DNA of 64,000 nt from Patescibacteria group bacterium (GTDB lineage Bacteria > Patescibacteriota > Kazan-3B-28). Made by a program: the position numbers and the translations under genes. Below the pieces are notes generated by a model. It did not search any database. It saw nothing but the letters and a program-made list of their open reading frames with translations, and was not told where the DNA came from. Positions 17,893-51,164 of the stretch are shown here, one piece after another (position 1 is the stretch's first letter; the number at the start of each line of letters is the position of its first letter). The stretch lies in assembly GCA_041389145.1 (NCBI GenBank), contig JAWKSK010000002.1, positions 3,311-67,310 on the forward strand, given 5' to 3'.

Positions 17893-18129
17893 AGTACTTG
17901 CAAAATTAATCTTTTAAAACGAGGTGAATTTGGAGCGAAAGCTTCATAGACGGGTGCAAAATATTGCAGCTGTTTTTACATCATTCTAGCGATTGATTTT
18001 ACGCCCTTTTCCAATCAGTAAGTACTTAGATATCCTTTAGAGTTAATTATTTTTGGGCTTACTTATTAAGTAAGCTAACAGTTGGAATCATCCGGACGCC
18101 TATTTATAGGTGTCACGGTTTCAACTTTT

Positions 18130-19594
<1,465 letters not shown>

Positions 19595-20279: not shown

Positions 20280-20356
20280 TGGTGGACCTGCGGGGATTCG
20301 AACCCCGGACCCCCTGCTTGCAAAGCAGGTGCTCTAGCCAACTGAGCTACAGGCCC
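20280..20356 (-). tRNA. tRNA-Ala(TGC)
   Basis: GGGCCTGTAGCTCAGTTGGCTAGAGCACCTGCTTTGCAAGCAGGGGGTCCGGGGTTCGAATCCCCGCAGGTCCACCA with a G3-U70 pair. Confidence 0.9.
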
Positions 20357-20696: not shown

Positions 20697-20773
20697 GGGC
20701 ATATAGCTCAGCTGGTTAGAGCGCAGTCCTGATAAGACTGAGGTCCCTGGTTCGAATCCAGGTATGCCCACCA
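20697..20773 (+). tRNA. tRNA-Ile(GAT)
   Basis: GGGCATATAGCTCAGCTGGTTAGAGCGCAGTCCTGATAAGACTGAGGTCCCTGGTTCGAATCCAGGTATGCCCACCA. Confidence 0.9.
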
Positions 20774-43652: not shown

Positions 43653-44507
43653 ATGAGCATATTTAAGGAACTGGTTGGACAAGAAGCAGTAAAGCGGACG
43701 CTGGAGCGTCACATTCAGAGGGGGAATTTGCCTCAGGCTTTAATCTTTGCTGGTCCAGCTGGGGTAGGTAGAACAACAGCTGCTAAGATTTTGGCAAAGA
43801 CATTGCATGGAAATCAGTCGGATACTCATCCGGATACCTTTTGGTTTGCGGAAAGAGTATTGGATAAGCGGGACCGGAAAATTGCCTCACCGATAAAAGA
43901 AACAGCGGATGAGATGGTGAAGTTTTTGTCATTAACTCCAATGGTGTCTAAACACAAGATTGCAATTGTAGACATGGGTGACGATTTAAGTACTGAAGCC
44001 CAAAATACTTTACTTAAAACCTTAGAAGAACCAAGAGCTAATAGTTTGATGATACTAGTGGTTAGTGATGAACACAGATTATTGCCTACAATTGTTTCAA
44101 GAGCTCAGGTAATGAGGTTCGTACCACTTAATAATAGTGAGATTAAAACCATAGTTCCGGCTGCTAGTGATGAGATGGTGAGGTATGCAGGAGGAAGTAT
44201 CAGACGGATTATGCAATTGACTCAAGGCCAGGAAGAGTTTGAAAAAGCTCGGAATGTGTATGAGTTCTGGATGAACTTGGATGAACAGAGTACAGAAAAC
44301 AGATTGAGGATTGCAGAAGAGCTGAAAGATAGGGAAGAGGCCATTGCATTCTTAGAAGCAGGGATACGAGTGTGTAGAACTCAACTGTTAGAAGAGGATG
44401 GAATTGAGATGACAGAAAAGATAGAACAGTTGGAATTGGCGATCGAAAAGATTAATGCCAATGCCAATTTGAGATTGGCTCTGGATGCAGTTTTGCTTGT
44501 GATATAA
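43653..44507 (+). CDS. holB: DNA polymerase III delta-prime subunit (HolB)-like clamp-loader subunit
   Basis: LIFAGPAGVGRTTAAKILAKTLH P-loop-like box, SRC-type region VSRAQVMRF, about 285 aa. Confidence 0.75.
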   Translation: MSIFKELVGQEAVKRTLERHIQRGNLPQALIFAGPAGVGRTTAAKILAKTLHGNQSDTHPDTFWFAERVLDKRDRKIASPIKETADEMVKFLSLTPMVSKHKIAIVDMGDDLSTEAQNTLLKTLEEPRANSLMILVVSDEHRLLPTIVSRAQVMRFVPLNNSEIKTIVPAASDEMVRYAGGSIRRIMQLTQGQEEFEKARNVYEFWMNLDEQSTENRLRIAEELKDREEAIAFLEAGIRVCRTQLLEEDGIEMTEKIEQLELAIEKINANANLRLALDAVLLVI

Positions 44508-46103: not shown

Positions 46104-46529
46104 GTGGCAAAGAAAGTTAAATCAGTTATTAAATTGCAGTGCGAGGCTGGTAAAGCAACTCCAGCTCCACCTGTTGGAACCGTTTTGGGTCCTACTGGTA
46201 TTGCAATGCAAGATTTCTGTCAGCAGTTTAATGACAGAACCAAAGATCAGATGGGATCTATTATCCCAGCTGTAATTACTATCTACGAAGACAGATCTTT
46301 TGATTTCATCACTAAGCAACCTCCAGCAGCTGAGCTAATCAAGCACGCCTTGAAGTTAAGCAAGGGTTCTGGTGTTCCTAACAAGGAAAAGGTGGCTAAG
46401 ATGACTCAGGCACAGCTTCAAGAAGTGGCTGAAAGAAAGATGCCTGACTTAAACGCAATTGATATTGAGGCAGCAAAGAAGATTATCGCCGGTACTGCCA
46501 GAAATATGGGTGTGGAAATAGTAGATTAA
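46104..46529 (+). CDS. rplK: 50S ribosomal protein L11
   Basis: [12 protein letters not shown]...[14 protein letters not shown]...; 141 aa; GTG start. Confidence 0.95.
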
Positions 46530-46547: not shown

Positions 46548-46877
46548 ATGGCTCAAAACCACGGTATCGTTAGAACAATTTATCTGTATCTGTTCGCGTT
46601 AGTTGGTTTGTTCCTGTTCGTGTTTAGTACTGTGAGTTTGGTGAGTACAACCTTAAATCGGTATGTGTTCCCAACAGAGTACGTTAGATATGACATTTCT
46701 AAACCAGTAGATGGTGAAGAAAATGTGATATCTGAAGAAGAACAAGAAGCAAACTTTATCAAGCAACAGGATAATGACTTCAAGCGAGGAGTTAACGGTT
46801 CTGTACCAGGTGTCATTATTGGTTACTTGTTGTGGATGTTCCACTGGAAGGTAATCACCAAAGATCACAAAAGTTAG
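46548..46877 (+). CDS. Hypothetical two-TM membrane protein inserted between rplK and rplA
   Basis: 109 aa; two hydrophobic helices flank an acidic loop; RBS-like aaagggggacatcATG. Confidence 0.4.
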   Translation: MAQNHGIVRTIYLYLFALVGLFLFVFSTVSLVSTTLNRYVFPTEYVRYDISKPVDGEENVISEEEQEANFIKQQDNDFKRGVNGSVPGVIIGYLLWMFHWKVITKDHKS

Positions 46878-46944
46878 ACAATATATTATTCGAGGTGGGA
46901 GCTTAGCAGTCGGCTAAGTGCTTGACCACGCAGGAGATAAAGAA

Positions 46945-47691
46945 ATGGCAGAAGCCAAGAAAGCAAAGAAGACCGAATCTAAGAAGGATAAAGTCCAGAA
47001 GTTTGGTCATGGTAAGAAGTACAACGAGCTTGTACAAAAAGTAGATAAGGAGAAGTTGTATGACTTGTCCGAAGCTTTGGATTTAGTGAAGGAAACTTCA
47101 CCAACCAAGTTTGATGCAACTGTTGAGTTGCACATGCAAATGGGATTGGATCCAAAGACTCCAGAACAAAACATTAGAGGTACAGTCACTCTTCCAGCAG
47201 GAAGTGGTAAGGTGCCAAAGATTTTGGTACTGGCTGAAGAAGCTGACGCTGAAAAAGCAAAGAAGGCAGGTGCTGACTTTGCAGGGTTAGACGACATGAT
47301 TGAGAAGATTGGTACTGGTTGGTTAGATTTTGATTTAGTAATTGCTACACCTGCAGCTATGCCTAAGGTGGGTAAGATGGGTCAAACTCTTGGTACCAAG
47401 GGATTGATGCCTAACCCAAAGTCAGGAACTGTATCTGCAGACCCAGCTAAGGCGGTAGAGGAGTTTAAGAAGGGTAAGGTAGAATACCGCTTAGATAAGG
47501 ATGCAATTGTGCACATGGGTATTGGTAAGGTTTCTTTCTCAGCAGATGACTTGAAGAAGAACTTTATGGCCGTGTTTGCTGCAATTAGATCTGCTAAGCC
47601 ATCTAGTGCTAAGGGAACCTACATGAAGAGATTGAGCTTATCCTCTTCTATGGGTCCTGGTATTAAGGTAGATATCAACACAGTCGTCTAA
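46945..47691 (+). CDS. rplA: 50S ribosomal protein L1
   Basis: Start at the ATG after a CAGGAG RBS (8-nt spacing); the ORF-track GTG extension was rejected. L1 fold signature (GTVTLPAGSGK...GKMGQTLGTKGLMPNPKSGTV). Confidence 0.95.
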   Translation: MAEAKKAKKTESKKDKVQKFGHGKKYNELVQKVDKEKLYDLSEALDLVKETSPTKFDATVELHMQMGLDPKTPEQNIRGTVTLPAGSGKVPKILVLAEEADAEKAKKAGADFAGLDDMIEKIGTGWLDFDLVIATPAAMPKVGKMGQTLGTKGLMPNPKSGTVSADPAKAVEEFKKGKVEYRLDKDAIVHMGIGKVSFSADDLKKNFMAVFAAIRSAKPSSAKGTYMKRLSLSSSMGPGIKVDINTVV

Positions 47692-47709
47692 GATTGGTTC
47701 AAAGTTTTA

Positions 47710-47745
47710 AAAAGGAGCTGGCTAGTTGCCAGCTCCTTTGTTATG
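47710..47745. terminator. Bidirectional terminator after rplA and after the minus-strand ORF 47756-48181
   Basis: aaaa ggagctggc tagtt gccagctcc tttgttatg. Confidence 0.6.
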
Positions 47746-47755
47746 AACAGTGAAC

Positions 47756-48181
47756 TCAGGTGCAAACCGTTTTACGTTCTGCCTTGAAGGTAAGGTCGAT
47801 TACCAGTTCACGGTTCATTTGCTCAACCCACTCAGTTCGTTGCCGTTGTCTTTGAATGACTAGATCTGGGCTGTACGGTAGCTCGCTAGTTTCAAGGACT
47901 TCAGCAGGGAGTGAACCGTTAATAAACCGTTCAGCGATAACCCTCTTGCAACACTCCCAGACCAGAACCTGTCCATCTGTGAGTTTAATTGCATGAAGGT
48001 AGTAGTGATCAGGATGGTGGTCACATTCACCAATATTTGCCCCGCCACCATCAAAGATGTAAGGGTAGTGATCTGTCCCACATGAACATCTGATCCTTTG
48101 TCCGACTATCATAACAAAGGCAATCTTCTCAAAGAAAATTTGAGCAAGAGGGTCGGTCTTGGTCATATCTAGGTGCATCAT
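47756..48181 (-). CDS. Hypothetical Cys/His-rich protein (possible zinc binder), GC-rich
   Basis: 141 aa with clustered C/H (RCSCGTDH...ECDHHPDHYYLH...WECCKR). Weak resemblance to deaminase-type zinc sites but no HAE/PCxxC. Confidence 0.35.
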   Translation of the reverse strand: MMHLDMTKTDPLAQIFFEKIAFVMIVGQRIRCSCGTDHYPYIFDGGGANIGECDHHPDHYYLHAIKLTDGQVLVWECCKRVIAERFINGSLPAEVLETSELPYSPDLVIQRQRQRTEWVEQMNRELVIDLTFKAERKTVCT

Positions 48182-48253
48182 TTCCTCCTGTACTGGATTG
48201 GGGTTAGTATCAAATATATTGATATCTATGTCAATTTGTTACAATTGACTGTC

Positions 48254-48685
48254 ATGAAGGTAAAAGTATCCAGAATAGATGTAAATCTGCCGATGCCGAT
48301 GTATCAGACCAAGGGGTCTGCCGGGTTTGATATATATGCTCGTGAAGAGGTAACCATCATGCCTGGAGAGCTGGTTAGAATTCCAACCAATCTGATAGTG
48401 GATACTCCAGTGGGATATTTCTTGATGCTGTCTTTAAGATCTTCTACCCCTAAAAAGAAACCAGGATTAGTGGTGCCACATGGAGTTGGAGTAGTGGATT
48501 CGGATTACAATGGACCAGATGATGAGGTATTGATGCAGGTGTTAAATACTGGAGATATTGCAGTAACGATAGAAAAGGGTGAACGGTTTGCTCAGGGGGC
48601 ATTTGTGAAAATAGATATGGCAACATTTATAGATACACCAAGACCAGTAGGGATGAGTCGAGGTGGATTTGGAAGTACAGGATAA
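48254..48685 (+). CDS. dut: dUTP diphosphatase (trimeric dUTPase)
   Basis: Start trimmed to MKVKVS. dUTPase motifs GSAGFDI, RSS, GVVDSDYNG. Putative TTGATA-15 nt-TACAAT promoter immediately upstream suggests a leaderless or short-leader mRNA. Confidence 0.85.
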   Translation: MKVKVSRIDVNLPMPMYQTKGSAGFDIYAREEVTIMPGELVRIPTNLIVDTPVGYFLMLSLRSSTPKKKPGLVVPHGVGVVDSDYNGPDDEVLMQVLNTGDIAVTIEKGERFAQGAFVKIDMATFIDTPRPVGMSRGGFGSTG

Positions 48686-48710
48686 TCTGGGGGAGAAAGG
48701 GAAGCCAAAA

Positions 48711-49388
48711 GTGAAGATTGATTTAAATGAAGAGCAGTTACAAAGATTTATTGTATTTGAAGGGGTAGATGGGAGTGGCCAGGATACTCAAGCACAGATA
48801 TTTGCAGATCATTTAAAAAAGCAGGGGTATAAAGTGTGGTTAACATCAGAACCTAGTAAGGACTTGGCATCTTTGGGTGTAACGGTTAGATATATTCTCA
48901 CCAACCAACCAGATTTTCCAGCTCATAGCTTACAGTTGCTGATGGTTGCAGATAGAGCAATGCATGTGGAGCAGATTAAGAAGTACCTGTCAGATGGATA
49001 TGTAGTGATTTGTGTTAGGTATATGTATTCCACATTGGCTTTTGGATTTGCTGATGGAATCGATATTAATTGGCTAGTGGAACTGAATAGATATTTTCCA
49101 CGTCCAGCAGCTGTTGCATATTTAGATTTAGCAGCCGAAAGTTCAATGCAGAGAGTAGAGAAGAGATCGCGAGAAAAAGGCCAGCCATTGGATCGGTTTG
49201 AAACAGTAGCTAACCTGGAAAAGGTGAGAAATGCATATTTAGACTTACAAAAGCTATGTCCTGAGATAAGGGTGGTGGATGCCTTTGGAACAATTGAAGA
49301 AGTAGCAACTAGAGTGCGTGAAACTATTGGTGAGACTATTGGACTCGAGAGTAAAGAACAGAAACCGTTGGATTTGCAGATGAGTTAG
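48711..49388 (+). CDS. Thymidylate-kinase-like protein with non-canonical P-loop
   Basis: FIVFEGVDGSGQDTQ aligns to the Tmk motif IV(F/I)EG(I/L)DG(A/S)GK(S/T)T but with Lys to Gln and Ser/Thr to Asp. The DR(Y/H)-like LLMVADRAMH and lid region are present. GTG start after a GGAGAAAGGG RBS; the ORF-track start at 48663 overlaps dut. Confidence 0.6.
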   Translation: MKIDLNEEQLQRFIVFEGVDGSGQDTQAQIFADHLKKQGYKVWLTSEPSKDLASLGVTVRYILTNQPDFPAHSLQLLMVADRAMHVEQIKKYLSDGYVVICVRYMYSTLAFGFADGIDINWLVELNRYFPRPAAVAYLDLAAESSMQRVEKRSREKGQPLDRFETVANLEKVRNAYLDLQKLCPEIRVVDAFGTIEEVATRVRETIGETIGLESKEQKPLDLQMS

Positions 49389-49503
49389 TTGGTTTTTCTG
49401 TGGAGCTGTGGTTAACTGTTTGGGTTAAGGAAATTATTATTGGGGGTGTACCTTGGCTAACAAGGGAAGTCCACAGCGTCCATTCTGTGCCAAGCTTGAT
49501 GCA

Positions 49504-50391
49504 ATGATTGGCAAGAAGATCCAGGTCTTAGACCATGGATACATTCGGCTTGTTGACTACATGGGTGTACAGGCCAGCGTAGCTCAAGCTGCCAGGGTTT
49601 CCTATCAGAAGGGAACCAGAAGGACTAGCGAGGATGTTGGTCTGGTTCGTAGGTTATATCGTGATCGTCACACGAGTCCATTGGAACAGCTTGTGATTAC
49701 GTTTGATCTGCGGATGCCAATCTTCGTGATGAGACAGTGGGTTCGACATCGAACTGCTCGTCTGAACGAAGAATCTGCTCGGTATTCTGAACTGGAGTCC
49801 ATTTTCTATCTCCCCAAGAGAGAGAGGATGGTGAGTCAGTCCAAGAAGAACAAGCAGGGAGGAGGTAAACTGCTCGATGATGCAGTTGCCGATCATATTG
49901 CTCAGCTGTTGCTGGGTGGGCAGGATGCGGCAGCTCGTGATTATGCAGAAATGATTAGGGCAGATTACGCCAGGGAGTTGGCACGGATCAACTTGCCACT
50001 CTCAATCTACACGAGAGTGAGGTGGCAGATTGATCTGCACAACCTTCTTCACTTCCTGTCACTGAGAAATGATCCTCATGCCCAGTATGAAATCAGGGTC
50101 TACGCCGAGCTCATTTACGAGAAGTATCTGAAGATCTGGGTGCCTGACATCTGTAGGGCATTTGAGGACCACACGCTCAAGTCTCTCCGCTATTCATTCA
50201 TTGACCAGCAAGTCGTGGAATGGGCAAGGAAGGAGTATTCTGGTGGAAACTGGGTTGATTCTCTGAGGCTGGTGCTGGCAGCCAATCCCAAGGATGAGGA
50301 TTCTCAGTTGTTCAGGCTGGCTAAGCAGTTCAATGTCAGTCCTGGTGAGATTAGCGAGCTGTTATCGAAGCTTGTCTTTCTCGAGAGTTAG
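49504..50391 (+). CDS. thyX: Flavin-dependent thymidylate synthase ThyX
   Basis: ThyX signature RHRTARLNEESARY (RHR-x7-S-x-RY); N-terminus MIGKKIQVLDHGYIRLVDYMG matches ThyX starts. In-frame TTG at 49453 is possible. GC-rich. Confidence 0.85.
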   Translation: MIGKKIQVLDHGYIRLVDYMGVQASVAQAARVSYQKGTRRTSEDVGLVRRLYRDRHTSPLEQLVITFDLRMPIFVMRQWVRHRTARLNEESARYSELESIFYLPKRERMVSQSKKNKQGGGKLLDDAVADHIAQLLLGGQDAAARDYAEMIRADYARELARINLPLSIYTRVRWQIDLHNLLHFLSLRNDPHAQYEIRVYAELIYEKYLKIWVPDICRAFEDHTLKSLRYSFIDQQVVEWARKEYSGGNWVDSLRLVLAANPKDEDSQLFRLAKQFNVSPGEISELLSKLVFLES

Positions 50392-50478: not shown

Positions 50479-50633
50479 CTCCTTTATAGACAGTGGGCAC
50501 AAAAGATAAGCCCCACCGAGAAGGACATAATTAAGCCTTGGGCCAGATTTTGGTCAGATGAGGATTTAATCGTGTTCTGCTCGGTGAGCAGAATTTTTTG
50601 TTGCTCGATATATCAGCTTTAAAAGTTGCAGGT
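50479..50633 (+). promoter_or_regulatory. rplJ 5' leader with attenuator-like hairpin (L10 autoregulatory leader candidate)
   Basis: 155-nt structured leader; hairpin ttctgctc ggtg agcagaa followed by ttttttg at 50575-50600, just upstream of the rplJ ATG. Confidence 0.4.
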
Positions 50634-51164
50634 ATGCCAAAAACACGCCAACAGAAGGCAGAGGTCATTGACTCTCTCACTTCGGCGCTAAAGGCTACTA
50701 CCCACGGGGTGCTGACTGACTTTGATAAGTTGACGATGGCTGACCTTGATGCCTTTAGAGCAACTGCTCGTGAAAAGGGTGTGAAGTATACAGTGGTCAA
50801 ACCAACCTTGGTCCAGATTGCTGCTGAAAATGCAGGAATCACTGGTCTCGACATTGCCAAAACCGGTAAAAGCTACGGCTTAGCCTGGGGTGAAGGTATT
50901 GATGAGGTCGGAATCTCCAAGTTGGTAAATGACTTTGCCAAGAAAAGTGATGATCGGGTGCATATTGCTCTCGGTATCATTGATGGCAAGATCGTTGACG
51001 CCGAGACAGTAAAGCAACTTGCCAGCTTGCCATCTTACGAAGAGTTGATGGCTCGTGTAGTGGGCAGTATGAATGCGCCAATCGGAAACTTTGTCTATTC
51101 CTTGAACTGGAATACTCAGAGCTTCTACAACGTTATAAAAGCAATTCAAGCAAGCAAAGCTTAG
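50634..51164 (+). CDS. rplJ: 50S ribosomal protein L10
   Basis: Start at MPKTRQQKAEVID; the ORF-track TTG extension was rejected. About 176 aa, upstream of rplL. Confidence 0.9.
   Translation: MPKTRQQKAEVIDSLTSALKATTHGVLTDFDKLTMADLDAFRATAREKGVKYTVVKPTLVQIAAENAGITGLDIAKTGKSYGLAWGEGIDEVGISKLVNDFAKKSDDRVHIALGIIDGKIVDAETVKQLASLPSYEELMARVVGSMNAPIGNFVYSLNWNTQSFYNVIKAIQASKA

Follow-up and report, generated by a model that had tools for sequence, protein, structure and literature searches.

Can a P-loop nucleotide kinase do housekeeping work after it has lost the Walker-A lysine? The question is raised by a gene at positions 48711-49388 of the forward strand in a 64,000-nucleotide stretch of DNA from a Patescibacteria group bacterium (GTDB lineage Kazan-3B-28; contig JAWKSK010000002.1, positions 3,311 to 67,310), which is called the window here. 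The Walker-A lysine is a textbook invariant of P-loop nucleoside triphosphatases (NTPases), and its mutation is the standard "dead" control. The product of the gene is, by profile and predicted fold, a full-length thymidylate kinase (Tmk), and it carries three coupled changes in the active site: the Walker-A Lys is Gln, the Ser/Thr that follows it (position K+1) is Asp, and the Walker-B Asp is Val. From sequence comparison we lean, with some reserve, towards reading it as the housekeeping dTMP kinase of its lineage, which would work without the Walker-A lysine.

The thymidylate kinase and its active site

Residues are numbered from the GTG at 48711, a start which matches the M-x-I-D-L N-terminus of the homologues. 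It lies 25 nucleotides beyond the stop codon of the dut gene and is preceded by a purine-rich stretch. Eleven homologues from independent assemblies, 62-92% identical to the window protein, form with it a clade of 12 members, referred to as the window clade; its nearest lysine-bearing relative is a protein here designated P0017. The features of the gene are as follows.

48711-49388 (+), tmk-like gene, 225 amino acids from GTG 48711 (mechanical open reading frame (ORF) 48663-49388)
48762-48788 (+), P-loop/Walker A, G18-V-D-G-S-G-Q24-D25-T26, invariant in the 12-member clade
48780-48782 (+), codon CAG of Q24 (Walker-A Lys to Gln), by alignment to known Tmks
48783-48785 (+), codon GAT of D25 (K+1 Ser/Thr to Asp), by alignment to known Tmks
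48888-48956 (+), dTMP-binding segment R60...M78-V-A-D81-R82, equivalent to E. coli R51, F74 and R78
49014-49022 (+), DRY/Walker-B motif V102-R103-Y104, with the Asp lost and the catalytic Arg kept; aligned to E. coli D99-R100 and human D96-R97-Y98
49152-49202 (+), LID, R148-V-E-K-R152-S-R-E-K-G-Q-P-L-D-R162-F-E, with R148/R152 equivalent to E. coli R149/R153 (class II)
49167-49178 (+), clade-specific insertion of four residues in the LID (residues 153-156), without counterpart in the other Tmks examined, including P0017
49356-49376 (+), C-terminal tail E-Q-K218-P-L-D-L, in which K, L, D and L are invariant in the clade; missing from the other Tmks examined, including P0017

The preliminary description of this locus, made from the letters alone, had placed the protein in the Tmk family across the whole fold, and profile and structure searches agree with it. 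The match to PF02223 has an E-value of 2e-33 (115.9 bits against a cut-off of 27), and the TIGR00041 score is 131 bits against a curated cut-off of 83.25. The AlphaFold2 (AF2) model, with a mean predicted local distance difference test score (pLDDT) of 85.9 and a predicted template modelling score (pTM) of 0.82, contains the P-loop core, the nucleoside monophosphate (NMP)-binding region and the LID by which the Tmk fold is recognised. Its best Foldseek match is the Tmk of T. maritima (3hjn; template modelling (TM) score 0.90, root-mean-square deviation 1.7 Å), and the best 50 matches listed are thymidylate kinases throughout. Databases (JGI names) label these proteins plain "dTMP kinase". The ratio of nonsynonymous to synonymous substitution rates (dN/dS) against the closest relative is 0.04, and the window gene is therefore under purifying selection.

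The changes in the P-loop, which had been reported as GVDGSGQDT with Gln for Lys and Asp for Ser/Thr, were confirmed by two kinds of alignment. In phmmer searches of solved structures the motif pairs column by column with GIDGSGKST/GKTT of the Tmks of T. maritima, A. aeolicus and T. thermophilus, and in a MAFFT alignment K16/T17 of the E. coli and K19/S20 of the human enzyme fall on Q24/D25. Measured against the family pattern GxDGxGK(S/T)T, the window protein thus lacks both the Walker-A lysine and the Mg-ligating Ser/Thr at K+1. The segment LLMVADRAMH had been taken for the DR motif; it holds instead the thymine-binding Arg (R82, E. coli R78), and the true DRY motif is V102-R103-Y104. There the Walker-B Asp (E. 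coli D99, human D96) has become V102, a third change that had been missed, while the clamp arginine R103 is present and 100% conserved. The dTMP-binding residues of E. coli Tmk, which we take to be E12, R51, F74, R78, S104 and Y108, have canonical counterparts by alignment in D20, R60, M78 (Phe in most relatives), R82, S107 and F111.

Compared with the canonical enzymes (EC 2.7.4.9; 3HJN, 2PBR of A. aeolicus, 5X7J of T. thermophilus and 4TMK of E. coli), the window protein is alike in fold at about 34% identity, in the dTMP residues, the DRY arginine, the class-II LID arginines, the Gly at K-3 and the presence of dut and thyX as neighbours. It differs by the Gln, the K+1 Asp, the Walker-B Val, the LID insertion and the QKPLDL tail. 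The insertion and the tail, the latter having low pLDDT in the AF2 model, are candidates for compensation of the lost lysine.

Spread of the lysine loss and covariation at the metal site

All 12 members of the window clade read GSGQDT together with [V/I]RY, and across the relatives Gln is encoded by both codons (CAA 45, CAG 34). One genome per GTDB species was scanned with the peptide patterns FEGxDGSGQ and G[FYH][KD]V[WLI]LT[SAY]EP, resulting in 197 confirmed relatives, nearly all of them labelled candidate phyla radiation (CPR)/Patescibacteria or DPANN archaea (Aenigmatarchaeota, Nanoarchaeia, Iainarchaeum). In the best 80 of the 197 the lysine position holds Gln in 75, Thr in 4 (Peribacteria) and Lys in 1; the pattern FEGxDGSGQ itself selects Gln, so the scan is a measure of abundance and not of frequency. 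A profile search of 1.84 billion representatives, in which the lysine position was left unspecified, returned 1236 proteins at E<=1e-30. From this search and the first homologue search together, 154 single-domain relatives (170-262 amino acids) were aligned, and 66 of them have no lysine at the position (Q 33, S 10, T 8, L 7, H 4, plus I, V and N). A word-index search seeded with a lysine-bearing relative gave 37 matches, 20 of them lysine-less, and added G and M to the residues found there, and a scan of IMG/VR with VFEGxDGSG gave 67, of which eight were lysine-less (T or H). Lysine and non-lysine states are interleaved on a neighbour-joining tree, with about 27 switches by Fitch parsimony on what is a noisy tree of 200 columns. 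The switches were several, possibly many, and there is no single clean split.

When the 66 lysine-less proteins were compared column by column with their lysine-bearing relatives, the lysine column was the sole strong discriminator. Conserved alike in both groups are G18, D20, G21, G23, T26, Q27, E47-P48, R60, D81-R82, H85, R103-Y104, S107, R148, R152 and F163-E164. Within the lysine-less set R82, R103 and R148 are 100% conserved, D20, G18 and G23 are invariant, and R60 is conserved at 95%. Enrichment in Lys was seen in two columns, one in T-K-E-P and the other in the helix that follows the LID, but these are either basic in canonical Tmks too or lacking in the window clade.

The second and third changes go together. 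Among 234 aligned relatives, a non-acidic Walker-B residue was found in 32 of the 33 proteins with D or N at K+1 and in 18 of the 201 others (Fisher p=2e-25, which overstates the significance because the sequences are related), and the covariation includes seven of eight lysine-bearing GK[DN] proteins. Because it extends to proteins that keep the lysine, the metal site appears to be maintained. The simplest reading of these columns is that Walker A now supplies the Mg-site carboxylate which Walker B used to provide, a swap that looks compensatory and not like decay. NMP kinases in particular can do without the K+1 Ser/Thr and the hydrogen bond it makes to the Walker-B Asp, since in them the attacking phosphate needs no deprotonation (PMC9599734). 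This is illustrated by adenylate kinases, which carry Gly at K+1 and, unlike the window protein, keep the lysine and the Walker-B Asp (PMC9599734).

A possible intermediate state is represented by P0017, which reads GSGKDT and VRY, is 43% identical to the window protein and lies in a dut-tmk-L10 slot; its neighbours Dut and L10 are 61% and 73% identical to those of the window. Tmks of this type resemble the window clade in the K+1 Asp, the hydrophobic Walker-B residue and the genomic slot, but keep the Walker-A lysine and have neither the LID insertion nor the QKPLDL tail. Since P0017 fills the equivalent slot, the Gln protein may be regarded as the positional orthologue of a lysine form, and since P0017 already has the Asp/Val swap, the alignment suggests that the swap came first and the change of Lys to Gln second.

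The form GSGT(S/T)T, with Thr for Lys, is typical of Peribacteria (loci L035, L061, L063 and L073) and occurs also in the best-scoring IMG/VR contigs labelled viral (L087, L088, L090, L091, L093, L120 and L122). At locus L040 (JAGGTM010000056.1) one tmk fragment is found inverted at both contig ends with an in-frame stop just past the P-loop, which is probably an assembly artefact.

A probable function without the lysine

If the gene encodes the housekeeping dTMP kinase of its lineage, tmk would be co-transcribed with dut and thyX, and its product would convert dTMP to dTDP at a rearranged Mg-ATP site without the lysine. The window protein retains the fold, the dTMP site, R103, the LID arginines R148 and R152, the adenine-loop region and all glycines of the P-loop. 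Substrates would be bound as in canonical Tmk, by way of the conserved dTMP site, the adenine-stacking R148 and the P-loop glycines. The ATP phosphates would be held by the backbone amides of the P-loop, by Mg2+ and by R103, R148 and R152; Asp25 may take over metal coordination from the lost Walker-B Asp, and Gln24 would be limited to hydrogen-bonding the beta and gamma phosphates. The missing charge may be unneeded at low flux (slow growth, small genome), or it may be replaced by a second or a monovalent cation, or by the clade-specific elements, that is, the longer LID or K218 of the tail. Such an enzyme would be expected to be slow yet sufficient. A rough calculation suggests that a genome of about 1 Mb needs about 6e5 dTTP per replication, which for a cell that doubles once a day amounts to a few per second, so that even a strongly slowed enzyme might suffice. 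Low flux demand could also be the reason why the lysine has been lost repeatedly in ultra-small, slow-growing lineages.

Several observations weigh against this reading. Published analysis regards the Walker-A lysine of P-loop NTPases as strictly conserved and the K+1 Ser/Thr of NMP kinases as dispensable (PMC9599734), so that it is the change of Lys to Gln that is genuinely unusual. The identical change has been made in another LID-bearing P-loop NMP kinase, E. coli adenylate kinase, where K13Q has 0.0002 of the wild-type kcat, an approximately 20-fold higher Km(ATP) and no complementing activity (PMC5028032). A compensating Lys/Arg, which the preliminary description had proposed to look for, was not found in any column when K/R frequency and Jensen-Shannon divergence were compared between lysine-less and lysine-bearing relatives. 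With Q, T, S, L, H, G, M, I, V and N all occurring at the lysine position, no specific replacement chemistry is evident from the alignments. Finally, a canonical lysine-bearing Tmk is encoded within a few kb at three related loci, L001 and L081 (window clade) and L029, the loci being covered to at most 10 kb on either side. In L001 and L081 it forms with thyX a cassette of higher guanine-plus-cytosine (GC) content between L1 and dut, its Tmk being 38-45% identical to the Gln-type proteins, and in L029 an E. coli-like Tmk lies 3.3 kb upstream. The cassette is missing from the remaining six of eight clade loci. No second Tmk was found in the 64-kb window by motif scan or by phmmer with lysine-type, Gln-type and E. 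coli queries, and tblastn detected no remnant of a canonical tmk in the gap between L1 and dut.

The adenylate kinase result bears directly on the earlier expectation that phosphotransfer would be abolished or radically changed. The part that concerns the lysine stands, as the substitution is crippling in a canonical NMP kinase (PMC5028032). The Asp, on the other hand, is probably not a second defect, given its covariation with Walker-B loss and the dispensability of the K+1 residue. It should be added that K13Q is a folded but essentially dead laboratory mutant, whereas the change in the window is natural, conserved and under purifying selection.

The strongest alternative, which we judge unlikely though far from negligible, is that the protein is an inactive or nearly inactive Tmk paralogue which binds dTMP and an adenine nucleotide and serves as a regulatory, sensing or scaffold subunit, for example as heterodimer partner of a canonical Tmk or as modulator of Dut or ThyX. 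The real dTMP kinase would then be encoded elsewhere, or dTDP/dTTP would be taken from the host. The symbiotic life and reduced metabolism of CPR and DPANN organisms count for this alternative, as do the loss of activity in K13Q, the many residue types tolerated at the lysine position and the canonical copies in cis in L001, L081 and L029. A precedent exists in PPK3 of Sulfolobus (cPPK3/rPPK3), a pair of exapted Tmk paralogues in which the ATP-site residues are kept and the dTMP site is lost; rPPK3 is a non-catalytic regulatory subunit that has lost the DRX Arg (PMC12995831). A comparable loss of residues needed only for catalysis was not seen here, R103, R148 and R82 being invariant in the 66 lysine-less relatives and R152 kept with them. 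Dead Tmk domains look different, as in the tandem protein P0055, whose N-terminal Tmk-like half is degenerate and has lost both P-loop and DRY motif; it is followed by a lysine-less Tmk domain. The swap of carboxylates implies a maintained metal site, and a lysine-bearing protein, P0017, occupies the equivalent position. Where a canonical copy does occur in the clade it belongs to an accessory cassette in two of eight loci, while dut and the Gln-type tmk are invariant core. Lysine-less Tmks are moreover embedded in thymidylate-synthesis clusters across the CPR (see below), and minimal genomes would rarely be expected to keep dead enzymes so widely.

Membership in the PPK3 group itself was considered and rejected. 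PPK3 (5H70/2PLR) shares with the window protein the Tmk fold and the annotation "thymidylate kinase" despite departing from Tmk motifs, but its pattern is the reverse of that in the window, where the dTMP site is kept and the ATP-site Lys is lost. In sequence the window protein is closer to true Tmk (E=5.7e-24) than to PPK3 (E=2.6e-12), and PPK3 belongs to a ppx/CHAD operon whereas the neighbours here are dut, thyX and ribosomal protein genes. A Tmk-like protein of anti-phage defence (PADLOC PDC-M51B) was likewise set aside, its score of 49.6 bits (E=9e-14) being far below the Tmk match and the context being one of housekeeping genes.

A second alternative, that the protein is an active phosphotransferase with an altered donor (another NTP, polyphosphate, acyl or enol phosphate) or an altered acceptor (dUMP, a modified dNMP), is improbable. 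Under it, the missing lysine and the extra carboxylate would point to a donor with a different charge or metal, and the net charge at the donor site does change by -2 (K to Q, S/T to D). Exaptation of the Tmk fold for polyphosphate kinases is known (PMC12995831). The preliminary description had also suggested an altered specificity, citing modified-dNMP kinases of phages. However, the dTMP-site residues are canonical, PPK3 shows the opposite pattern, and conservation extends to the adenine-stacking R148 and to the adenine-loop region near the C-terminus. Genes for ppx, CHAD or base modification were not found near the window tmk, and the neighbourhood is that of ordinary dTMP synthesis. The phage version of the proposal is rejected on context as well, given a ribosomal-protein cluster, a 16S rRNA gene and tRNAs in the same window, and on distance, since identity to phage Tmks does not exceed about 34%. 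For the best relatives from phages and IMG/VR taken together the identity is 24-41%, and most of them carry the lysine.

Sequencing or assembly error, named beforehand as a possible refutation, and a decaying pseudogene have practically no chance of being correct, as the motif is identical in 12 independent assemblies, both Gln codons are used, the lysine is missing in hundreds of relatives, the ORF is intact and full length at the low dN/dS ratio given above, and no point in their favour was found.

The preferred reading, a working dTMP kinase without the lysine, may be extended beyond this clade, although in this wider form we offer it tentatively and would not be surprised to see it fail. 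Many Tmks of CPR and DPANN organisms would then catalyse phosphoryl transfer without the Walker-A lysine, in whose place Q, T, S, L, H, G or M has appeared time and again. The lysine would be dispensable when the arginines of the LID and the DRY motif, with Mg2+ or an extra cation, hold the phosphates, and its recurrent loss would be a sign that kinetic demands on the enzyme are relaxed or altered in ultra-small symbionts.

In any case this is a natural and widespread family without the Walker-A lysine, under purifying selection and in a housekeeping position, with the remaining catalytic residues kept except for the Walker-B Asp. If active, it defines the minimal requirements for phosphoryl transfer in NMP kinases and shows what may substitute for the lysine (LID arginines, a relocated carboxylate, an extra cation). 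If inactive, many CPR/DPANN genomes are scored as having tmk without possessing a working dTMP kinase, which would alter reconstructions of the dTTP supply of symbionts, and the proteins would form a new class of pseudoenzymes that are conserved and bind nucleotides. In both cases, automated annotation files the lysine-less proteins as ordinary dTMP kinase, as is seen from the JGI names and from scores above the TIGR00041 cut-off. No description of lysine-less Tmks in CPR or DPANN was found in the literature, coverage of which was incomplete, so that this is weak evidence of novelty.

Gene neighbourhood in the window and in relatives

The local gene order is L11 - DUF5671 - L1 - 141-amino-acid antisense ORF - dut - tmk - thyX - L10 - L12, with the following coordinates.

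46104-46529 (+), L11, upstream flank, conserved cluster
46548-46877 (+), DUF5671 protein, upstream flank, conserved cluster
46918-47691 (+), L1, upstream flank, conserved cluster
47692-48250, variable slot between L1 and dut, with an ORF at 47756-48181 (-) of 141 amino acids, Cys/His-rich, which may not be a gene
48251-48685 (+), dut (dUTPase), PF00692 3e-18; mechanical ORF from 48173, likely start ATG 48251
49453-50391 (+), thyX (flavin-dependent thymidylate synthase), PF02511 7e-50; TIGR02170 180 bits against a cut-off of 88
50598-51164 (+), L10, downstream flank, 98-99% identical to the closest relative, locus L083
51191-51697 (+), L7/L12, downstream flank, 98-99% identical to L083

Neither Pfam nor PHROG nor PADLOC gave a match for the 141-amino-acid antisense ORF. 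Each of the eight clade loci has the core L11-DUF5671-L1-(variable)-dut-tmk-(variable)-L10-L12, with a tmk of the Gln type. What lies between L1 and dut varies strongly from relative to relative; L086 and L154 share a CxxC-rich ORF of 162-164 amino acids there (61% identity between the two), and in L081 a CxxC ORF of 119 amino acids lies between dut and tmk. The order dut-tmk-thyX-L10 with a Gln-type tmk was also found in a candidate division Kazan genome (L004, 47% identity), and dut-tmk-thyX is the order in L083 too.

On a wider scale, 80 related GTDB loci were examined within 3 kb on either side of tmk, and gene families were checked with Pfam. The genes found within this distance were GatB (47 loci), L11 (32), dCMP deaminase (31), ThyX (29), NusG (25), DeoC (22), Dut (21), MiaA (18), ThyA (16), SHMT (8) and a DHFR-like gene (7). 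Of the 80 loci, 54 contained one or more deoxypyrimidine genes and 45 a thymidylate synthase, totals for which Dut and ThyX of the window type were counted over the whole fetched locus. The lysine-less Tmk is the sole kinase of this recurrent gene cluster for dCMP/dUTP -> dUMP -> dTMP -> dTDP. Fusion proteins also exist in which it is joined to dCMP deaminase (P0144) or a DeoC-like aldolase (L022, 7140-8417). The recurrent cluster, present in many CPR genomes, joins translation genes (GatB, MiaA, NusG, L11) to a complete thymidylate module (dCMP deaminase, ThyX/ThyA, SHMT, DHFR-like, DeoC, Dut, Tmk). In one further relative (P0119) the lysine-less Tmk domain has a Cys-rich C-terminal extension.

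The dut-tmk-thyX island (48492-50391) is far more diverged from L083 than are its flanks. The synonymous substitution rate (dS) of tmk is 1.17 at a nucleotide identity of 79%, and thyX aligns only in part, at 68%, as against a dS of 0.07-0.10 for L10 and L12 and an identity of 89% for the stretch from L10 to TGT. The GC content of thyX is 0.495, compared with 0.40-0.43 in its neighbours. Together, the divergence of the island and the GC content of thyX suggest recombination or replacement inside it.

The 64-kb window as a whole is cellular in content, with a 16S rRNA gene, seven tRNAs, holB, L11, L1, L10, L7/L12 and TGT. The 16S rRNA gene is complete (18128-19592, +) and is accompanied by tRNA-Ala (20280-20356, -) and tRNA-Ile (20697-20773, +). 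No 23S or 5S gene was found in the 64 kb, and the rRNA genes appear to be unlinked, as in many reduced-genome/CPR organisms. The holB gene for the delta' subunit of DNA polymerase III (43653-44507, +) has no tmk adjoining it in this window. In its P-loop, GPAGVGRTT, the Walker-A Lys is replaced by Arg, which is usual for the non-catalytic delta' subunit.

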